Shown here piece after piece: positions 56,067-63,554 of a DNA stretch of 64,000 nucleotides. This DNA comes from an uncultured Thermococci archaeon. GTDB lineage: Archaea > Methanobacteriota_B > Thermococci > Methanofastidiosales > B48-G16. Within the stretch, counting starts at the first letter, position 1, and every line of letters starts with the position of its first letter. Made by a program: the position numbers and the translations under genes. The stretch covers positions 64,001-128,000 of the forward strand of contig CAZQQT010000007.1 of NCBI GenBank assembly GCA_964595645.1. The letters are read 5' to 3'. The notes under the pieces are model-generated. The model ran no database searches, was not told the DNA's origin, and saw nothing but the letters and a program-made list of their open reading frames with translations.

Positions 56067-57332
56067 TCATTTCTCCATTCGTCGTTTGAGCGATCGTGCA
56101 TGCCCATATAACCCTTCCGTCTCTGCAAGCATCCTCGCTATACTACCTATCTTTTCAATTCCCGTTTTCGTCACGCGGAGAGTTGTCTGAAGCTTAACGA
56201 AATCTATGGCACTCAAGCCGCCGGTATACCGCGCACCGGTATTAGTAGGGAGTGTATGGTTGAGTCCGCTGCTGTAATCACCGAGAGCTTCGGCAGCGAA
56301 GGATCCGACAAAGAGCGATCCGTAGTTTCGTAGGCATGGGATGTACTGGTCGGGATCGCGTAGCTGAAGTTCCAGATGTTCAGGTGCCCTTTTGTTCGCA
56401 ATTTTAACTGCTTCGTCTATTCCCTCGGTAAGAATCATCGCCCCGTGCGCTATCGCCTTCTCAGCAGTGGATCGTGTGGGGAGCCCCTCGAGCTGGTGTT
56501 GAAGCTCCGTTGCAACCCGCTCCGCCAAGGTTACCGATGGTGTAACTAAGAGTGGTAATGCATTGTCATCGTGTTCCGCTTGCGCAAGCAAATCGGCTGC
56601 AACGATCGCCGGATCCGCTGTCTCATCGGCAATGATCATGAGCTCGGTGGGGCCTGCGAGGAAATCGATGCCTACAGCACCAAGCACCTGTTTTTTTGCC
56701 GCTGTGACGTACGTATTTCCAGGTCCCACGATTTTATCCACCTTTTTGATAGATTCTGTTCCGTAGGCCATAGCCCCTATCGCCTGGACACCTCCCACTT
56801 TATACAGTTCGTCCACGCCGACACGGGCTGCTGCGGTGAGAAGTGCTGGATGGATGGTACCCTCATAGGTTGGGGGTGAGCAGACAGCGATCTCCTTCAC
56901 TCCTGCAACAACAGCTGGAATGCAGCACATAAGCAGTGTAGAGAGAAGCGGTGCCTGCCCGCCGGGAACGTAGACACCCACACGATCTATCGGGATAATT
57001 TGCTGGCCGGCGAAGACCCCAGGGGCGATCTCCATTTCAAATGCGGTGAGCTGGGAGAACTGACGTTCGGCGAACTGTGTGATGTTCCTCGCAGCTGCAT
57101 CGATTGCGTCCGCCACAGACGTATCTGTCACGTGAACTGCCTCTCTGAACTCGTGACCCTCTACTCGAAGTTTTTCCAAGACCACATGGTCAAACTCGAG
57201 GGTATAGCGCTTCACTGCCCTATCTCCTTTCTCTCGTACCTCTTGGAGTATTGTTCTCACTGTATCCAATTCCTCAGGCTCCTTGTACGTAAAGAACTCA
57301 TCCGTGAGTTCATCTGCAGTAACAATCCTCAT
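56067..57332 (-). CDS. hisD: Histidinol dehydrogenase
   Basis: VGVYVPGG, GGVQAI, GPGNTYV.AAK, AGPTE, QAEH, APEHLEL, GDY, NHTLPT. Confidence 0.96.
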   Translation of the reverse strand: MRIVTADELTDEFFTYKEPEELDTVRTILQEVREKGDRAVKRYTLEFDHVVLEKLRVEGHEFREAVHVTDTSVADAIDAAARNITQFAERQFSQLTAFEMEIAPGVFAGQQIIPIDRVGVYVPGGQAPLLSTLLMCCIPAVVAGVKEIAVCSPPTYEGTIHPALLTAAARVGVDELYKVGGVQAIGAMAYGTESIKKVDKIVGPGNTYVTAAKKQVLGAVGIDFLAGPTELMIIADETADPAIVAADLLAQAEHDDNALPLLVTPSVTLAERVATELQHQLEGLPTRSTAEKAIAHGAMILTEGIDEAVKIANKRAPEHLELQLRDPDQYIPCLRNYGSLFVGSFAAEALGDYSSGLNHTLPTNTGARYTGGLSAIDFVKLQTTLRVTKTGIEKIGSIARMLAETEGLYGHARSLKRRMEK

Positions 57333-58582
57333 TCTTTTCTCCTCCGTGCAAGCTCATAAAATACCTCATCAAGGGGTATCCCTCGTTTTGCCAGCAAAAC
57401 AGTAGAAAAGTATAGGAGATCGGCAATTTCCCATATCACCCCTTCGTCTGTTTCTGCCTCTACTACCTCCTGCGCTTCCTCCAGAATCTTCTCTCTGAGG
57501 AGAGGATCAGTTAGTGTGGCAGTATACGATCCCTGCTGTGGGCTGTTCAGCCTGTCCTGGACTATCTCGTAGAGCTCATACAACTCGTAGTCTCTCTCGC
57601 CGAAACAGGAGTACGATCCCGTATGGCAGGCGACACCTTCCTGCGCTACAGTAGCAAGAATCGTGTCGCCATCGCAGTCTGCCCTCATCCGTATAAGCTC
57701 CTGCGTATTCCCCGAGGTTTCTCCTTTCTGCCACAGACTATCCCGGGATCGAGAGAAGTACCACATCTTTTCCGTCTCAAACGCTTTTCGAAGCGACTCT
57801 TTACTGCTGTACGCGAGCATGAGCACCTGTCCTGTGGTATCCTGTGTGATTGTTGGAATGAGGTCACTATCCCATCTCAGCGAAGCAATGAAGGCTTCTG
57901 TAAGATCTATTTTTCCTGTATAGAGTGCCATGCCGAGTTGAATATCCACTCCCATCCGTGAGAGCTCCCGTATCTCCTTCATCGTGCTCACTCCTCCAGC
58001 AACGGTGATCGGGTTCTCTGTGGTGTGTACCAGCGCTTCCACTACGTCCATGTCAGTTCCCTTCATTGTGCCTTCACGTTCCACGCAGGTAAAGAGGAAC
58101 TCGGCAGCGTATGTCTCCAGATGCGAGACTGTCTCAAGGAGATCGAGTCCTGTAGTGTGTCGCCATGCGTCGGTCACGATCTCTCTGTGGAGAGCATCAA
58201 TGGCAATGATCACTCTGTCTCTTCCCACCGCCGAGACCAACGCTTCAAGAAAACCGTCGTTGATCCTGCCGCTATCAAAGGCTTTCGATCCGACGATGAT
58301 CTTTTTCGCGCCGAGAGAAATGAGCTCCCGTGCATGTTCCGGTGTCCGTACTCCACCACCCACACGACAGTCCCCAATTCTCAGGATCTTTTTTACTGTC
58401 TCAGCATTATCGCCTTTGTTCATGGCGGCATCGAGATCGATGACTGCGATCTCACCGTATCTATCAAACTCTCTGGCAAGAGAAAACACATCCTCACGTT
58501 CAAGCATCTTTTTCCTTCCCTGTTGTAACTGCACCGCCTTTCCCTCTTTGAGGTCGATGGAAGGGATGATCATCGTACGCAC
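57329..58582 (-). CDS. hisA-hisIE: HisA-HisI-HisE trifunctional fusion
   Basis: HisA (IIPSIDL..GKAVQL.QG, IDLDAA, VGGG.R, EREGTMKG, AGGV), HisI (VLMLAY, SRSR..LWQKGETSGN, DCDGD, ACHTG..SCF), HisE (SYTA.L, EEAQE, EIADLLYF). Confidence 0.92.
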   Translation of the reverse strand: MRTMIIPSIDLKEGKAVQLQQGRKKMLEREDVFSLAREFDRYGEIAVIDLDAAMNKGDNAETVKKILRIGDCRVGGGVRTPEHARELISLGAKKIIVGSKAFDSGRINDGFLEALVSAVGRDRVIIAIDALHREIVTDAWRHTTGLDLLETVSHLETYAAEFLFTCVEREGTMKGTDMDVVEALVHTTENPITVAGGVSTMKEIRELSRMGVDIQLGMALYTGKIDLTEAFIASLRWDSDLIPTITQDTTGQVLMLAYSSKESLRKAFETEKMWYFSRSRDSLWQKGETSGNTQELIRMRADCDGDTILATVAQEGVACHTGSYSCFGERDYELYELYEIVQDRLNSPQQGSYTATLTDPLLREKILEEAQEVVEAETDEGVIWEIADLLYFSTVLLAKRGIPLDEVFYELARRRKE

Positions 58583-59322
58583 ACTCCTCTTTTCTTTAGA
58601 TACGTCTTGATCTCCTGTACTGTGTACTCACCGTCGTGAAGAAGGGATGCCAGGAGAACGGCATCTGTCTTTCCGTTTTCCACTACCTCGTATATTTGTT
58701 CGAGGGTTCCAGCCCCACCTGATGCAATAACTGGGATGTTCACGCTCTCAGAGACTGTCCTCGTGAGCTCAAGATCGTAGCCTTGCTGCGTTCCGTCTCT
58801 ATCCATAGAGTTGAGCAGGATCTCGCCTGCACCAAGCGCTTCGCCTTTTTTTGCCCAGGAAATAACATCAACCCCCGAATTATTCCGTCCACCATGGGTA
58901 TAGGCGTACCATCGGGTCCCTCGTTTTTTCGCGTCGACAGAGAGTACGATACATTGGGATCCAAAAGTCTGTGCCCCGCGAGAGAGAAGATCGGGGTTGT
59001 GGAGGGCGGAAGTGCATAGTGCAACTTTATCAGCGCCTGCATTCAGAACAGCACGCATATCCTCAACAGTTCGCAATCCTCCACCAACTGTGAGCGGAAT
59101 GAAGACCTCTCTCGACACGCCCCTCACTACATCGATAAGGATCTCTCTACTTTTATAGGAGGCTCCAATATCGAGAAAGATGAGTTCATCGGCTCCTTGA
59201 TCATTGTACCGTCTCGCAAATTCCATTGGATCGCCTACATCGCGGAGTTCCTTAAATCTTACACCCTTTCTCACTCTTCCCTCGTCTACATCGAGACAGG
59301 GAATAATCCGTGTTGTTAACAT
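58570..59322 (-). CDS. hisF: Imidazole glycerol phosphate synthase, cyclase subunit
   Basis: RIIPCLDV, GADELIFLDI, PLTVGGG, GAGEILLNSMDRDGT, IASGGAG. Confidence 0.97.
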   Translation of the reverse strand: MLTTRIIPCLDVDEGRVRKGVRFKELRDVGDPMEFARRYNDQGADELIFLDIGASYKSREILIDVVRGVSREVFIPLTVGGGLRTVEDMRAVLNAGADKVALCTSALHNPDLLSRGAQTFGSQCIVLSVDAKKRGTRWYAYTHGGRNNSGVDVISWAKKGEALGAGEILLNSMDRDGTQQGYDLELTRTVSESVNIPVIASGGAGTLEQIYEVVENGKTDAVLLASLLHDGEYTVQEIKTYLKKRGVCVR

Positions 59323-59912
59323 TGTCTCACCCAGTTTTTCAGGAGGTTAAGCCCAATTTTTCCGCTCTTTTCCGGGTGAAACTGCACAGCGTAGATCTTA
59401 CCCTTTCCAATCACAGAAGGGTAGGAGACACCATACTCGGTGGTGCCGATCACAATGGACTCCTCTGTACGAACGTAGTACCCGTGCAAAAAGTAAAAAA
59501 AGGAACTATCATCGATTCCTTCCATTAACGGCGAGTTCCGTTTTATAGAAACGTTGTTCCACCCTATCTGTGGTACTTTATACCTTTCAAACTCAACGAC
59601 ATTGCCGCGGAAAATGCCAAACCCCCTCGTATCCTCCGCCTCTTCACTTGTTTCAAAAAGGAGCTGCATGCCGAGGCAGATCCCTAAAAACGGCCTATCC
59701 GCGCGTATCCAGTCATCAATATGCTCATACATGCCTGAAAACACTAGCCGGAGAATCGCAGAACGGAATGCACCGACACCTGGAAGAATCAGGCCATCTA
59801 TCCCTCTAAAATCTTTTTTCGATTCGACAACTTTGTATTGTGTTCCCAAGTATTCTAGCGCTTTTTTTACTGAAAGGAGATTTCCAGCTCCATAATCTAC
59901 TATTCCAATCAT
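59316..59912 (-). CDS. hisH: Imidazole glycerol phosphate synthase, glutaminase subunit
   Basis: DYGAGNL, LPGVG, GICLGMQ, VPQIGWN, QFHPEKS. Confidence 0.97.
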   Translation of the reverse strand: MIGIVDYGAGNLLSVKKALEYLGTQYKVVESKKDFRGIDGLILPGVGAFRSAILRLVFSGMYEHIDDWIRADRPFLGICLGMQLLFETSEEAEDTRGFGIFRGNVVEFERYKVPQIGWNNVSIKRNSPLMEGIDDSSFFYFLHGYYVRTEESIVIGTTEYGVSYPSVIGKGKIYAVQFHPEKSGKIGLNLLKNWVRQC

Positions 59913-60496
59913 ACTATCCCCTTTGTGCTTGGTATAGCGTTTTTTCGCCGTTTTTCAATAGTGCACGCCCTCTTCAACGAATGTCCGAAGGCTTTAAAGA
60001 TTGCCTCGATCTTGTGGTGATCGGAACGGCCGTAATACACGTGCACATGAAGTGTGGCCCCCAACGATCCAACAATCCCCTGAAAAAAATCGTTTAACAA
60101 CTCAGTAGAGAGATCACCAACTCTCTTGTTTTCAAAGGTTGCATGCATGGTGAGATGGGTTCTGTTGGATATATCGACGGCAGTCATTGCCAACGCGTCA
60201 TCCATGGGGCAGACAAAGAACCCCGTCCTACAAATGCCTCTTTTATCACGCAATGCTTTCCTAAAAGCTTCGCCCAGTACAATTCCTGTATCTTCGACAG
60301 TGTGGTGCTGATCCACCGCTGTATCACCGTGTACTTCCATTTCCAGATCAAAGACTCCATGCTTCGCAAAGGTCTCCAACATGTGCGTTAAAAACCCTAT
60401 AGGTGTTTTTACAGTGCTCTCTCCCGTTCCATCAAGGTTGAGCTCTATTCGTATCTGTGTCTCCTTTGTGTTTCTCTCAACAACAGCAGTTCTCAT
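59909..60496 (-). CDS. hisB: Imidazoleglycerol-phosphate dehydratase (monofunctional)
   Basis: RNTKET, FLTHML, DQHHTVED, PMDD, DHHKIEAIFKA, PSTKG. Confidence 0.97.
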   Translation of the reverse strand: MRTAVVERNTKETQIRIELNLDGTGESTVKTPIGFLTHMLETFAKHGVFDLEMEVHGDTAVDQHHTVEDTGIVLGEAFRKALRDKRGICRTGFFVCPMDDALAMTAVDISNRTHLTMHATFENKRVGDLSTELLNDFFQGIVGSLGATLHVHVYYGRSDHHKIEAIFKAFGHSLKRACTIEKRRKNAIPSTKGIV

Positions 60497-61560
60497 ATTG
60501 ACACATCTCCCATTCCTTTTTCCTCTCGGGGTAGAATATCTCTCAGTACGCTAAGAAACGCGGTATTTTCGCTGCGGGTACCGACAGTTACTCGAAGATA
60601 TCCGTCCATTACTGGCAATGAGCTGAGATCCTTCACCAGTATTCCCCTTTTCTCTAAGGCGTTTTTGATACACTCGGCATCCTGTCCCACATTGACCAAG
60701 ATGAAATTTGTAGCCGTAGTACGCGTGTTAACGCCCAGTTTTCTCAATGCACTGGAAAGAAACGCCTTTTCCTTCTGTATATGGTTGACCATGCGACCTA
60801 TATAGGCAGTATCGGCAAGTGCTGCTCTCCCTGCAGCAACAGCTGCAGCATTAACAGAAAAAGGAGAAACCACCTTTCGAAGCTCGTCAATGATCTCTTC
60901 ACTCGCTACGGCCATACCCAGCCGCAGACCGGCCAGCCCAAATGCCTTGGAAAAGCTGTGGACTGTAATGAGGTTTTCGAACTCCTCGACGAGATCGACG
61001 TACGACTCACCGGCAAAGTGGTAGTAGGTTTCATCCAGCACGACCAGTGAGTTGCTCATTTCCTCCATGATGTCAACGAACTCATCTTTGTCGATGCACG
61101 TGCCGGTGGGGCTTCCTGGATTCACAACAACCACAAGCTTCCCTGACTGTGATACGAGGCGTTTCGTTGGAAAGGAAAGATCCTCATTGTACATCACAGG
61201 TACCACCTGTGCTCCTCGTATCTGTGCCAAGATTTCGTACATGGGAAATGTCGGAGAGGGGAGTATCGCCCTATCTCCCTTTCCAATGTACGCGTTCATC
61301 GCCGCTTGAATCGCTCCATTGGCACCATTGGTGAGAAGAATATTTTCAGGGGGTACTGCTAAATACGTTGAAATTTCCTCAACTAACTGAGAATAATCCG
61401 GGTATAAGCTTATATCATTGGAATCCAGAGCGTGAAGAGCTTCTAGTGCCTTCGATGAGCAGCCTCTAGTATTCTCGTTGAGGTTCAGCCGTATAGCAGA
61501 TTTTCGTAATTTAGGTGGTAGATACGGTGAAACCTCAGCCAGTTCCTCACGAGCTCTCAC
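60493..61560 (-). CDS. hisC: Histidinol-phosphate aminotransferase
   Basis: LNLNEN, NP.SPTG, DETY, SFSKAFGLAGLRLG, NFIL, LRVTVGT. Confidence 0.93.
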   Translation of the reverse strand: MRAREELAEVSPYLPPKLRKSAIRLNLNENTRGCSSKALEALHALDSNDISLYPDYSQLVEEISTYLAVPPENILLTNGANGAIQAAMNAYIGKGDRAILPSPTFPMYEILAQIRGAQVVPVMYNEDLSFPTKRLVSQSGKLVVVVNPGSPTGTCIDKDEFVDIMEEMSNSLVVLDETYYHFAGESYVDLVEEFENLITVHSFSKAFGLAGLRLGMAVASEEIIDELRKVVSPFSVNAAAVAAGRAALADTAYIGRMVNHIQKEKAFLSSALRKLGVNTRTTATNFILVNVGQDAECIKNALEKRGILVKDLSSLPVMDGYLRVTVGTRSENTAFLSVLRDILPREEKGMGDVSI

Positions 61561-62411
61561 AGGACCACCTTCCGCAACTCGTACTCCAGAATGTCGGTCG
61601 CACCGAGGTTTTTGAGTTGTGGTATCAGTTTTGCTGTTTCCGTCCGTTTCACCGCAATTTTTACCGCGTACCCTTTCTCCCCATAGAGTGGTGCCATAGT
61701 TGGAGATCGCATGCAGGGGAGACTCTGAATGATTTCATCGGCTCTCTCTTGAGGAACGTTCATCTCAAGCATGACCCGTTCCCGGGCGTCAAGTACCGCC
61801 TCAAACAGCGTCGTTAATTCGTCGATCTTCTCTCGTTTCCAGGGATCCTCCAACGCCTTTCTACTTCCGATAAATCGAGTGGATGAGTTCAAAAGTGTGC
61901 TGACAACGTGGAGGTTGTGCTTCTCGAGTGTCCGTCCAGTGGAGGTGTTATCAACGATCATATCAGCATCGTCAGGAGGAAAAACCTCTGTTGCACCGTG
62001 GGTCCGTAAAAATACGTAGTCGTATCCTTCTTTCTTAAGAAAATTCGTGGTGATTCTCTCGTACTCAGACGCAACGACGATCCTTCTCTCATGGAGATTT
62101 TCGTGCAGAAGATCCTCCGGTACCGCCGCCACAATTTGTACGGGATCGAACCCGAGATCCAGTACCTCCACCACATCCGCACCTGTTTCAAGTACCCAAT
62201 CATGTCCAGTAACCCCGACATCGTGCGATCCCAGCTCGAGAAGTGTTGGGATATTCTGCGGTTTCATTATTTTCATTTCAAGCTCTGTGTCACTGACAGT
62301 AGGTCTGTACGTTCGCTCCTTTACCTCTATCCGTATGCCTGCCTCGTTCAGAAGGCCGATCACATTCCCATGAATCCTACCCTTCGGTATAACAATTCGT
62401 AATGTTGTCAC
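61557..62411 (-). CDS. hisG: ATP phosphoribosyltransferase, long form
   Basis: IPKGR, G.TG.D, VASEY, GATE, D.IVD..STG.TL, C-terminal regulatory domain (PCMRSPT...LGATDIL); GGAGGTG SD. Confidence 0.96.
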   Translation of the reverse strand: MTTLRIVIPKGRIHGNVIGLLNEAGIRIEVKERTYRPTVSDTELEMKIMKPQNIPTLLELGSHDVGVTGHDWVLETGADVVEVLDLGFDPVQIVAAVPEDLLHENLHERRIVVASEYERITTNFLKKEGYDYVFLRTHGATEVFPPDDADMIVDNTSTGRTLEKHNLHVVSTLLNSSTRFIGSRKALEDPWKREKIDELTTLFEAVLDARERVMLEMNVPQERADEIIQSLPCMRSPTMAPLYGEKGYAVKIAVKRTETAKLIPQLKNLGATDILEYELRKVVL

Positions 62412-62443
62412 AAAAGCACCTCCCCTCTTAAAAAGGAGATTAG
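62412..62443 (-). promoter_or_regulatory. Hairpin sequestering the hisG Shine-Dalgarno site, with a U5 tract
   Basis: mRNA AUCUCCUUUUUAAGAGGGGAGGUGCUUUU-GUG: AUCUCCUUU (62440-62432) can pair with AGGGGAGGU (62426-62418), which covers most of the SD GGAGGUG (62423-62417). Confidence 0.6.
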
Positions 62444-62521
62444 TTATCGATGGTGATGCAGTCCCGACACTACCTTAGAAATACCAATGTTCGTAGGTGT
62501 ACATTGTTGGTCAGGATACAT
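62444..62521 (-). CDS. Putative his operon leader peptide (HisL-like) MYPDQQCTPTNIGISKVVSGLHHHR
   Basis: ATG 62521 to TAA 62444; CAT-CAC-CAT at 62458-62450; 32 nt upstream of the hisG start. Confidence 0.72.
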   Translation of the reverse strand: MYPDQQCTPTNIGISKVVSGLHHHR

Positions 62522-62543
62522 CACGCCTCTTTCTCTTTGTCCC

Positions 62544-62560
62544 TTTATAAATGTTTTCCC
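62544..62560 (-). promoter_or_regulatory. Archaeal promoter (BRE + TATA) of the his operon
   Basis: GGGAAAACA-TTTATAAA on the minus strand; standard spacing puts the TSS at about 62521-62524, on the leader start codon. Confidence 0.65.
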
Positions 62561-62795
62561 AGCATAAAGTTTTAAAGGATGTACCTATTCTCATTCGCAT
62601 GCTCCGTTGAAGAAAAAAGAGAGCGTTTTTTCTACATTTTTATTACTTTAATAAACTATTTCTGAATTAGAACGCGACGAAGTATTTTTCAGTGCTTTTG
62701 AGGCATATAAGAGAAAATTGGAAAAAACACAACAGCTTCTGAGAATGAGAAAATCTTTTAAAGACATATATGCAGAAGAGAATAAAGAGAGTACT

Positions 62796-63554
62796 ATGAA
62801 AATCTTTATTATAGCAGCTGCACTGACTCTTACTGTTGTTGCGATCTTTGTGTATACTCAGGAGGAACCACCCATGGAAGAGAAAAACATGACTCATAAA
62901 ATAGAAATGCCTCCCATCGACCTCGATACGCCAGCTGAGACGAAAACGGCAACCTTCGCCCTCGGCTGCTTTTGGGGTGCTGAGTCCACCTTTGGCTGCG
63001 TTCCGGGTGTGATCAGAACTCGTGTCGGATATGCGGGAGGCACCACCGAGAATCCAACCTATCGTAATATCGACGATCATATTGAAACCGTCCAGATCGA
63101 GTACGATCCCACGATGGTATCCTACGAAGAACTCCTCGAGATCTTCTGGAACGCGCATACCCCCACGTCACAACCGTGGAAACGGCAGTACATGTCTGTA
63201 ATATTCACTCATACAAACGAGCAAAGAGAACTGGCTTCTTCAACACGAAATCGCGAGGCGAAAATCCAGAGAGAGATCGCGACAGAAATCATAGCCTTCT
63301 CGAAATTTTATCCTGCTGAGGACTACCACCAAAAGTACCATCTCCAGCAGTATACGAAGCTTATGAACGAGTTTACAACTGTCTACCCAAATTCTAAGGA
63401 TTTTATCAACTCTACCGCCGTAACACGAACGAATGGATATGTGGGTGGGTGTGGCACCCTGGCAGATCTCCAAGAAGAGATAGACCAGCTCGGACTCTCA
63501 AAAGAGGGGAAGAAGTATCTGTTAGAGATTGTGAGTGGAAGAAAATACCGTTAA
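62796..63554 (+). CDS. msrA: Peptide methionine sulfoxide reductase A with N-terminal signal/anchor
   Basis: FALGCFWG, GVIRTRVGYAGG, PTY, H.E, FYPAEDYHQKY; hydrophobic N-terminus MKIFIIAAALTLTVVAIFVY. Confidence 0.92.
   Translation: MKIFIIAAALTLTVVAIFVYTQEEPPMEEKNMTHKIEMPPIDLDTPAETKTATFALGCFWGAESTFGCVPGVIRTRVGYAGGTTENPTYRNIDDHIETVQIEYDPTMVSYEELLEIFWNAHTPTSQPWKRQYMSVIFTHTNEQRELASSTRNREAKIQREIATEIIAFSKFYPAEDYHQKYHLQQYTKLMNEFTTVYPNSKDFINSTAVTRTNGYVGGCGTLADLQEEIDQLGLSKEGKKYLLEIVSGRKYR

Follow-up and report, generated by a model that had tools for sequence, protein, structure and literature searches.

A probable ribosome-read histidine sensor in the leader of an archaeal his operon, and leaders of similar layout across class Thermococci

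The leader of the his operon in the window, i.e. the whole 64-kb stretch of DNA from an uncultured archaeon analysed here, can be read as a histidine sensor that is read by the ribosome and would act on the translation of hisG. Judging from sequence comparisons, we assign this reading a probability of about 0.87. The sensing element would be a short upstream ORF (uORF), which is real and conserved and probably senses histidine, and there is a fair chance that its mechanism is new. As far as sequences can tell, the same layout is present 5' of phylogenetically separate his operons across class Thermococci, the class of the host, which also includes Thermococcus and Pyrococcus. With Candidatus Methanofastidiosa in its order, the host probably belongs to an uncultured family of Methanofastidiosales.

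Results

The his leader of the window

The initial annotation of the window had described a 25-codon ORF ending with a His triplet, a BRE/TATA box preceding it and a gap of 32 nt between the stop codon and hisG, and all these elements were found at the positions claimed (Table 1); hisG begins with GTG at 62411. The operon order, originally given as hisG-C-B-H-F-(AIE)-D, was confirmed in the form hisG-C-B-H-F-(A+IE)-D. A second in-frame candidate start codon, GTG at 62524, lies one codon 5' of the ATG of the uORF. In the Thermococcus kodakarensis TK0242 leader (see below) the mapped transcription start is located 29 nt past the first T of the TATA box; by analogy, the same spacing would put the transcription start of the window leader at about 62522 and would make the uORF leaderless.

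Table 1. Features of the his operon and its leader in the window
Feature	Position	Strand	Remarks
BRE and TATA box (TATA TTTATAAA, 62551-62544)	62544..62560	-	From the sequence; in register in all four orthologues
Helix P1: 62522-62510 (uORF start region) paired with 62468-62455, first His codon included	62455..62522	-	Predicted
uORF of 25 codons, predicted to be leaderless, end LHHHR-stop	62444..62521	-	ATG at 62521, TAA at 62446-62444; L031, L200 and L201 agree in length, in frame and in the His-His(-His)-Arg-stop end
His codons CAT CAC CAT, proposed sensor	62450..62458	-	From the sequence; the only His codons of the uORF, followed by CGA and TAA; counterpart in L201 is CAT CAT
+1 frame from the His codons, ending with TAA (62442-62440) at the foot of P2	62440..62457	-	Putatively translated
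Hairpin P2 (10 bp, 62440-62418), about -10 kcal/mol, over the hisG SD GGAGGTG (62423-62417)	62418..62440	-	Predicted; kept with different loops in L031, L200 and L201
hisG, long form, heading the operon	61557..62411	-	TIGR00070 and TIGR03455; 65-70% identity to bacterial HisG
hisC, hisB, hisH, hisF, fused hisA-hisIE, hisD	56067..61560	-	Part of the his operon

Three His codons in any frame occurred in 0.36% of 50,000 dinucleotide shuffles of the window leader, and the genome background for a His triplet was 0.62% per 110 nt. The host genome (1.97 Mb) contains 548 TATA-led short ORFs, and none but the window uORF carries a His triplet close to its end. The uORF also contains the palindrome TGTACA (62498-62503), which we take to be the TrpY box consensus. 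This palindrome is present in three of the four orthologues and also 5' of the trp TATA box (G000:C2), and the window as a whole is not enriched for it (15 occurrences vs. 10 expected).

In a midpoint-rooted FastTree phylogeny, the rooting of which does not fix the donor, the HisG of the window belongs to a six-member clade (support 0.99) nested among bacterial HisG sequences. The HisG proteins of Methanofastidiosum and of Thermococcales fall apart from this clade (FastTree).

Conservation in the orthologous leaders

The window family consists of four readable orthologous leaders, that of the window and those of L031, L200 and L201, two of which are 96% identical; L202, with 25 nt only, was left out of the leader comparison. 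The HisG proteins of L031, L200 and L201 are about 73%, 87% and 79% identical to that of the window, respectively. All four leaders have kept the TATA box in register, the 25-codon frame, two or three terminal His codons followed by Arg and stop, and the hairpin at the SD. The peptide encoded by the uORF diverges, most strongly in L201, and the constraint acting on it is weak (pN/pS 0.6), as is normal for leader peptides. The comparison proposed in the initial annotation, whether a His-ended short ORF 5' of hisG is retained in relatives despite peptide divergence, gave a positive answer in 4/4 leaders, with a gap of 29-34 nt. Searches of fragments, plasmids, class-wide DNA and representative genomes found no further orthologues of the window family. 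The distances between the uORF stop and the hisG start in the four leaders are 32, 32, 29 and 34 nt, hence in-frame fusion of the uORF to hisG was rejected as a family rule. A ribosome reading through the normal stop would meet a TGA that overlaps the hisG start in the window and in L200, but not in L031.

Recurrence in other his operons

The Methanofastidiosum-type genomes (family f2) have a second, distant his operon, with a HisG that is 26% identical. In 12/12 aligned leaders of this family there is a 22-24-codon ORF with two or three terminal His codons, followed by a hairpin at the SD. Within the uORF only indels in multiples of three occur, outside it there are indels of 1-2 nt as well. 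Several Methanofastidiosum-type genomes possess two distant hisG copies (L003-L017 vs. L111-L118), and the His uORF is found at the operon copy only.

In Thermococcales, 49 of the 50 hisZ leaders (His-ended uORFs occur, among others, in L283-L329) contain an ATG-initiated ORF ending with His-His and at most four further codons, vs. 0.7% in shuffled sequences; the lone exception has kept three His codons and lost the stop. The uORF ends with YCHHLF-stop in T. kodakarensis (TK0242 leader, L028:485-572) and with HLHHH-stop in Pyrococcus furiosus (L030:543-582). For TK0242 the primary transcription start was mapped to 203450 and the gene starts at 203598 (PMC4247193), therefore the ATG of the uORF (203460) is inside the transcript. 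The His codons of the Thermococcales leaders are 122 CAT and 6 CAC, whereas in the neighbouring genes there are 55 CAT and 184 CAC. Other archaea with His uORFs 5' of hisG are represented by L241, L242, L243 and L245 (G061 group) and by L262 and L264. In the last two, a tRNA-like stretch, by eye resembling tRNA-His, lies approximately 20-100 nt 5' of hisG, between the uORF and the SD.

Leaders of other amino acid operons

The trpE leaders of the window genome (G000:C2, upstream of 141067, minus strand; L222/L267), L232 and L233 contain a 21-codon leaderless ORF with the end W-R-(F/L)-stop. Trp19 and Arg20 are kept across the three genomes and the remainder of the peptide diverges. In all three leaders the start codon of the ORF pairs with a covarying segment just 3' of the stop, and no reading-frame pattern common to the three was found. 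The amino acid thus matches the operon, with His codons in his leaders and Trp codons in trp leaders, and such a match is a hallmark of ribosome-based sensing. The trpE gene of L232 apparently has no standard start codon (ATC follows the SD).

On inspection, no cognate uORF was seen in front of the lys and met/thr clusters in the window genome. A short ORF 5' of a chorismate mutase/prephenate dehydratase-like gene (G000:C2, upstream of 134463, minus strand; L266, L268) has, towards its end, one Tyr and three Phe codons; no orthologous leader was found for it.

Predicted RNA structures and the position of the ribosome

Folding predicts two helices, P1 and P2, neither of which figured in the initial annotation, and all effects of ribosome position described in this section are likewise predictions of the folding model. 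The SD is sequestered in a predicted duplex in all four leaders of the window family. The window leader has a single hairpin, over the SD, and neither a competing antiterminator nor another fold releasing the SD was found in it; the window, Thermococcales and Methanofastidiosum leaders had no match in Rfam at the gathering score, His_leader included.

Counted from the P-site codon, archaeal ribosomes protect 15-16 nt, and their nuclease footprint clears 7-9 nt past the A site (PMC7261190). In constrained folding the SD was shut with the ribosome on the His codons and open with the ribosome at or beyond the stop. With the ribosome on the last His codon the SD stayed shut in all four window-family leaders at footprints of 5-9 nt, because P2 begins 10 nt past that codon. 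When a tight 5-nt footprint was assumed, the cost of opening the window SD was 6.8 kcal/mol in the free RNA, 6.7 with the ribosome on the last His codon, 5.1 at the normal stop and 0.7 at the +1 stop. With a clearance of 7-9 nt the normal stop alone opens the SD (1.5 and 0.6 kcal/mol) and the advantage of the +1 stop is gone. In Thermococcales the effect of a ribosome on the last His codon was negligible (median SD opening cost from 6.4 to 5.8); in P. furiosus and a few others it opened the SD (from 13.3 to 2.9).

The +1 reading frame

In the window the +1 frame entered at the His codons has its stop at -31, only 4 nt past the normal stop. The corresponding frame stops at -16 in L200, ends inside hisG in L031 and fuses to hisG in L201, thus it reaches the hisG start in two of the four window-family leaders. 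In all Thermococcales loci (50/50 vs. 20.3 expected) no stop interrupts the +1 frame between the last His codon and the hisZ start, the corresponding numbers for frames 0 and -1 being 11 and 9, and the +1 frame usually ends with a TGA overlapping the start codon of the first gene. For an open +1 frame over 23 Thermococcales spacer clusters, which are partly related and not fully independent, the joint log10 P was -11.7. This is the signature expected from a +1 slip that would carry the His-starved ribosome to the first gene.

The same +1 pattern was found at single His codons in the leaders of family f4 and the G061 group, with a second site fusing into hisG. In family f4 (L207-L209, L211-L213) a pair of small ORFs lies 30-180 nt 5' of hisG, and each of them contains a His codon in NTT-CAT context. 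A shift by +1 in the first ORF would lead into or up to the second, while hisG is in the +1 frame relative to the second and lacks a separate SD-led start. On the basis of these sequences family f4 is a candidate for a double frameshift. In L241 and L242 the second ORF is SD-led and has hisG as its +1 frame; in L262 the +1 frame runs without a stop over 96 codons, as far as the hisG start. NTT-CAY sites occur in family f4, in the G061 group and in some Thermococcales. For the P-site codons of the window (CTG CAT, CAT CAC) base pairing suggests poor re-pairing of the tRNA after a +1 slip.

Discussion

It was proposed in the initial annotation that the window leader senses histidine by ribosome stalling. 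The first half of this proposal, a sensor read by the ribosome, is well supported by the four orthologous leaders, by the recurrence across the class and by the Trp mini-ORF at trpE. The second half, a simple stalling attenuator, found no support: no antiterminator was found, and because the modelled ribosome leaves the SD shut when on the His codons and opens it when at the stop, simple stalling and melting is unlikely.

As a tentative alternative, for the window leader at somewhat less than even odds and by analogy with its relatives, we favour a +1 slip at the His codons under starvation, combined with translational coupling. When charged tRNA-His is plentiful, the His codons would be read fast, the normal stop would be used and P2 would keep the hisG SD closed. 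When His is scarce, the ribosome would wait at the empty His codon, slip into the +1 frame and bypass the stop. The slipped ribosome would then enter or pass P2 and open the SD, and hisG would be started by coupling or re-initiation. Slow A-site codons favour +1 shifts (PMC5009743), and termination-reinitiation has been demonstrated in archaea (PMC6728339). In a wider form, which we consider possible but just short of an even bet, a shortage of charged tRNA-His would turn on his operons of different origin in class Thermococci through a programmed +1 slip at the His codons, and the window leader would represent a compact form of this, with a gain of 4 nt being enough to open the SD hairpin. 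It must be noted that slippage is suggested for the window mainly by analogy, because the gain is so small and the local codons would re-pair poorly. It is also a disadvantage of the slip that in the window and in L200 the +1 frame falls short of the hisG start, that the benefit of the +1 stop vanishes at the clearance reported for archaeal ribosomes (PMC7261190), and that the three trp leaders do not share a frame pattern. The transcription start of the window leader, translation of its uORF, the slip and the response to histidine are what we infer.

It is conceivable that the ribosome responds to histidine shortage without leaving its frame. The His codons could pair with the start codon of the uORF (P1) and block re-initiation; slow decoding of His would hold P1 open, more ribosomes would load, and each of them would melt P2 at the normal stop, allowing hisG to start. 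Folding predicts P1 for the window family and for most Methanofastidiosum leaders, and relative to codon shuffles the helix is moderately supported, but it is absent in L114, in L200, L201 and the window it is not above shuffles (for the window 9/60 shuffles were as strong), and the consensus fold of the four sequences contains few supporting changes. As a class-wide feature P1 is weak, the permutation test of covariation in Thermococcales giving p = 0.03 on related sequences. The modelled energies are in favour of the dwell-time route: a ribosome on the His codons cuts the opening cost of the window 5' end from 8.4 to about 2 kcal/mol, and a 9-nt footprint is enough for a ribosome at the normal stop to open the SD region (from 13.4 to 5.9). 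The paired start codons of the three trp leaders also fit. However, AUG is complementary to CAU, thus some pairing is automatic, and the open +1 frame of the relatives is left unexplained. On balance, we regard control by dwell time as rather unlikely. Still less likely is classical translational attenuation of the mycobacterial poly-Cys or cat-86 type, the route nearest to the initial annotation, in which a ribosome stalled on the His codons would free the hisG SD directly. The layout is like that of the mycobacterial leaderless poly-Cys attenuators (10.1101/834739), an alternative fold pairs the His-codon region with the 3' part of the SD, and in P. furiosus and a few others the ribosome on the last His codon does open the SD; the shut SD in all four window-family leaders and the negligible median effect in Thermococcales speak against it.

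The ribosome position could instead set transcription termination in the spacer, at a U-tract or by FttA/aCPSF1. In archaea transcription and translation are coupled, P2 with a short U-run scores terminator-like, and several uORF stops are followed by U-rich tracts. We think this very unlikely in view of the U-run being the spacer between the SD and the start codon, interrupted in L031 and L201, and of the missing antiterminator fold and Rfam match. Lastly, the His codons might be the by-product of an RNA or DNA element that binds a protein or pairs with AUG or the SD, in which case the ORF would be no sensor. CAU repeats are complementary to AUG, CAUCACC resembles an anti-SD, the TGTACA palindrome is kept by three of the four orthologues, and purifying selection on the peptide is weak; the last point carries little weight with leader peptides. 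Such a by-product would not account for the amino acid tracking the operon, nor for the fact that 49/50 and 12/12 leaders keep both an ATG in frame and a stop close by, nor for the frame-preserving indels, and we find it highly improbable.

Comparison with known systems shows both likeness and difference. Like the enterobacterial hisL (Rfam His_leader), the window leader has a short 5' ORF with tandem His codons heading a his operon, and the sensing of charged tRNA-His proposed here would be a further common trait. It differs from hisL in the archaeal promoter, in the predicted leaderless start, in the two or three His codons placed next to the stop and in the probably translational output; the mutually exclusive terminator and antiterminator of hisL were not found, the U-run is not conserved, and there is no His_leader match. 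The closest match is offered by the mycobacterial poly-Cys attenuators (e.g. Ms5788A), which share with it a leaderless ORF (predicted here), C-terminal cognate codons, an SD in a duplex and, probably, translational output. In those leaders the sensing codons themselves pair with the SD and stalling frees it (10.1101/834739), whereas the window SD is hidden by a separate hairpin beyond the ribosome footprint, which a modelled stall alone does not open. The window leader thus lacks some of the defining properties of both the hisL and the poly-Cys types. As to the slip, the +1 frameshifts of prfB, antizyme and Ty1, reviewed in PMC5009743, resemble the proposed event in that a slow or empty A site leads to slippage past an in-frame stop; here the signal would be the uncharged tRNA of the pathway product, and the shifted frame usually ends at, and is not fused with, the regulated gene. 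Passages of that review treat the natural role of hungry-codon shifting as unclear, and in the open-access literature we found no published case of a natural frameshift used as an amino acid sensor. If the +1 slip is true, it would be a frameshift serving amino acid sensing.

The nearest archaeal precedent lies in trpY, whose only Trp codon, at position 2, was reportedly suggested by Xie and Reeve in 2005 as a possible sensor of charged tRNA, but it involves no uORF. End-product control of archaeal amino acid biosynthesis is exerted by TrpY and Tar (TK0271), which regulate operons for aromatic amino acids and, unlike the leader described here, are DNA-binding proteins (PMC6737238). A T. kodakarensis transcriptome paper from 2014 stated that in vivo regulation by attenuators or riboswitches lacked direct experimental backing in Archaea (PMC4247193), and our search of the open-access literature found no report of an archaeal his leader peptide. 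Elements of the type first seen here in the genome of an uncultured organism also occur in T. kodakarensis (TK0242) and P. furiosus. Both species have genetics, and for T. kodakarensis there is a mapped start, thus the idea of the ribosome as an archaeal amino acid sensor is directly testable.

Inheritance of the leader from the bacterial donor was considered and rejected, no bacterial leader resembling that of the window at the DNA level. Many bacterial relatives have His-rich leader ORFs of their own, and uncultured bacteria (Calditrichota, Spirochaetota and others; L036, L038, L070, L095, L160, L199 and more) showed His-rich leader ORFs 5' of hisG. Finally, a divergent msrA-like gene is located at 62718-63554 (+) in the window; it adjoins hisG in L201 and is near hisG on the P0004 contig.
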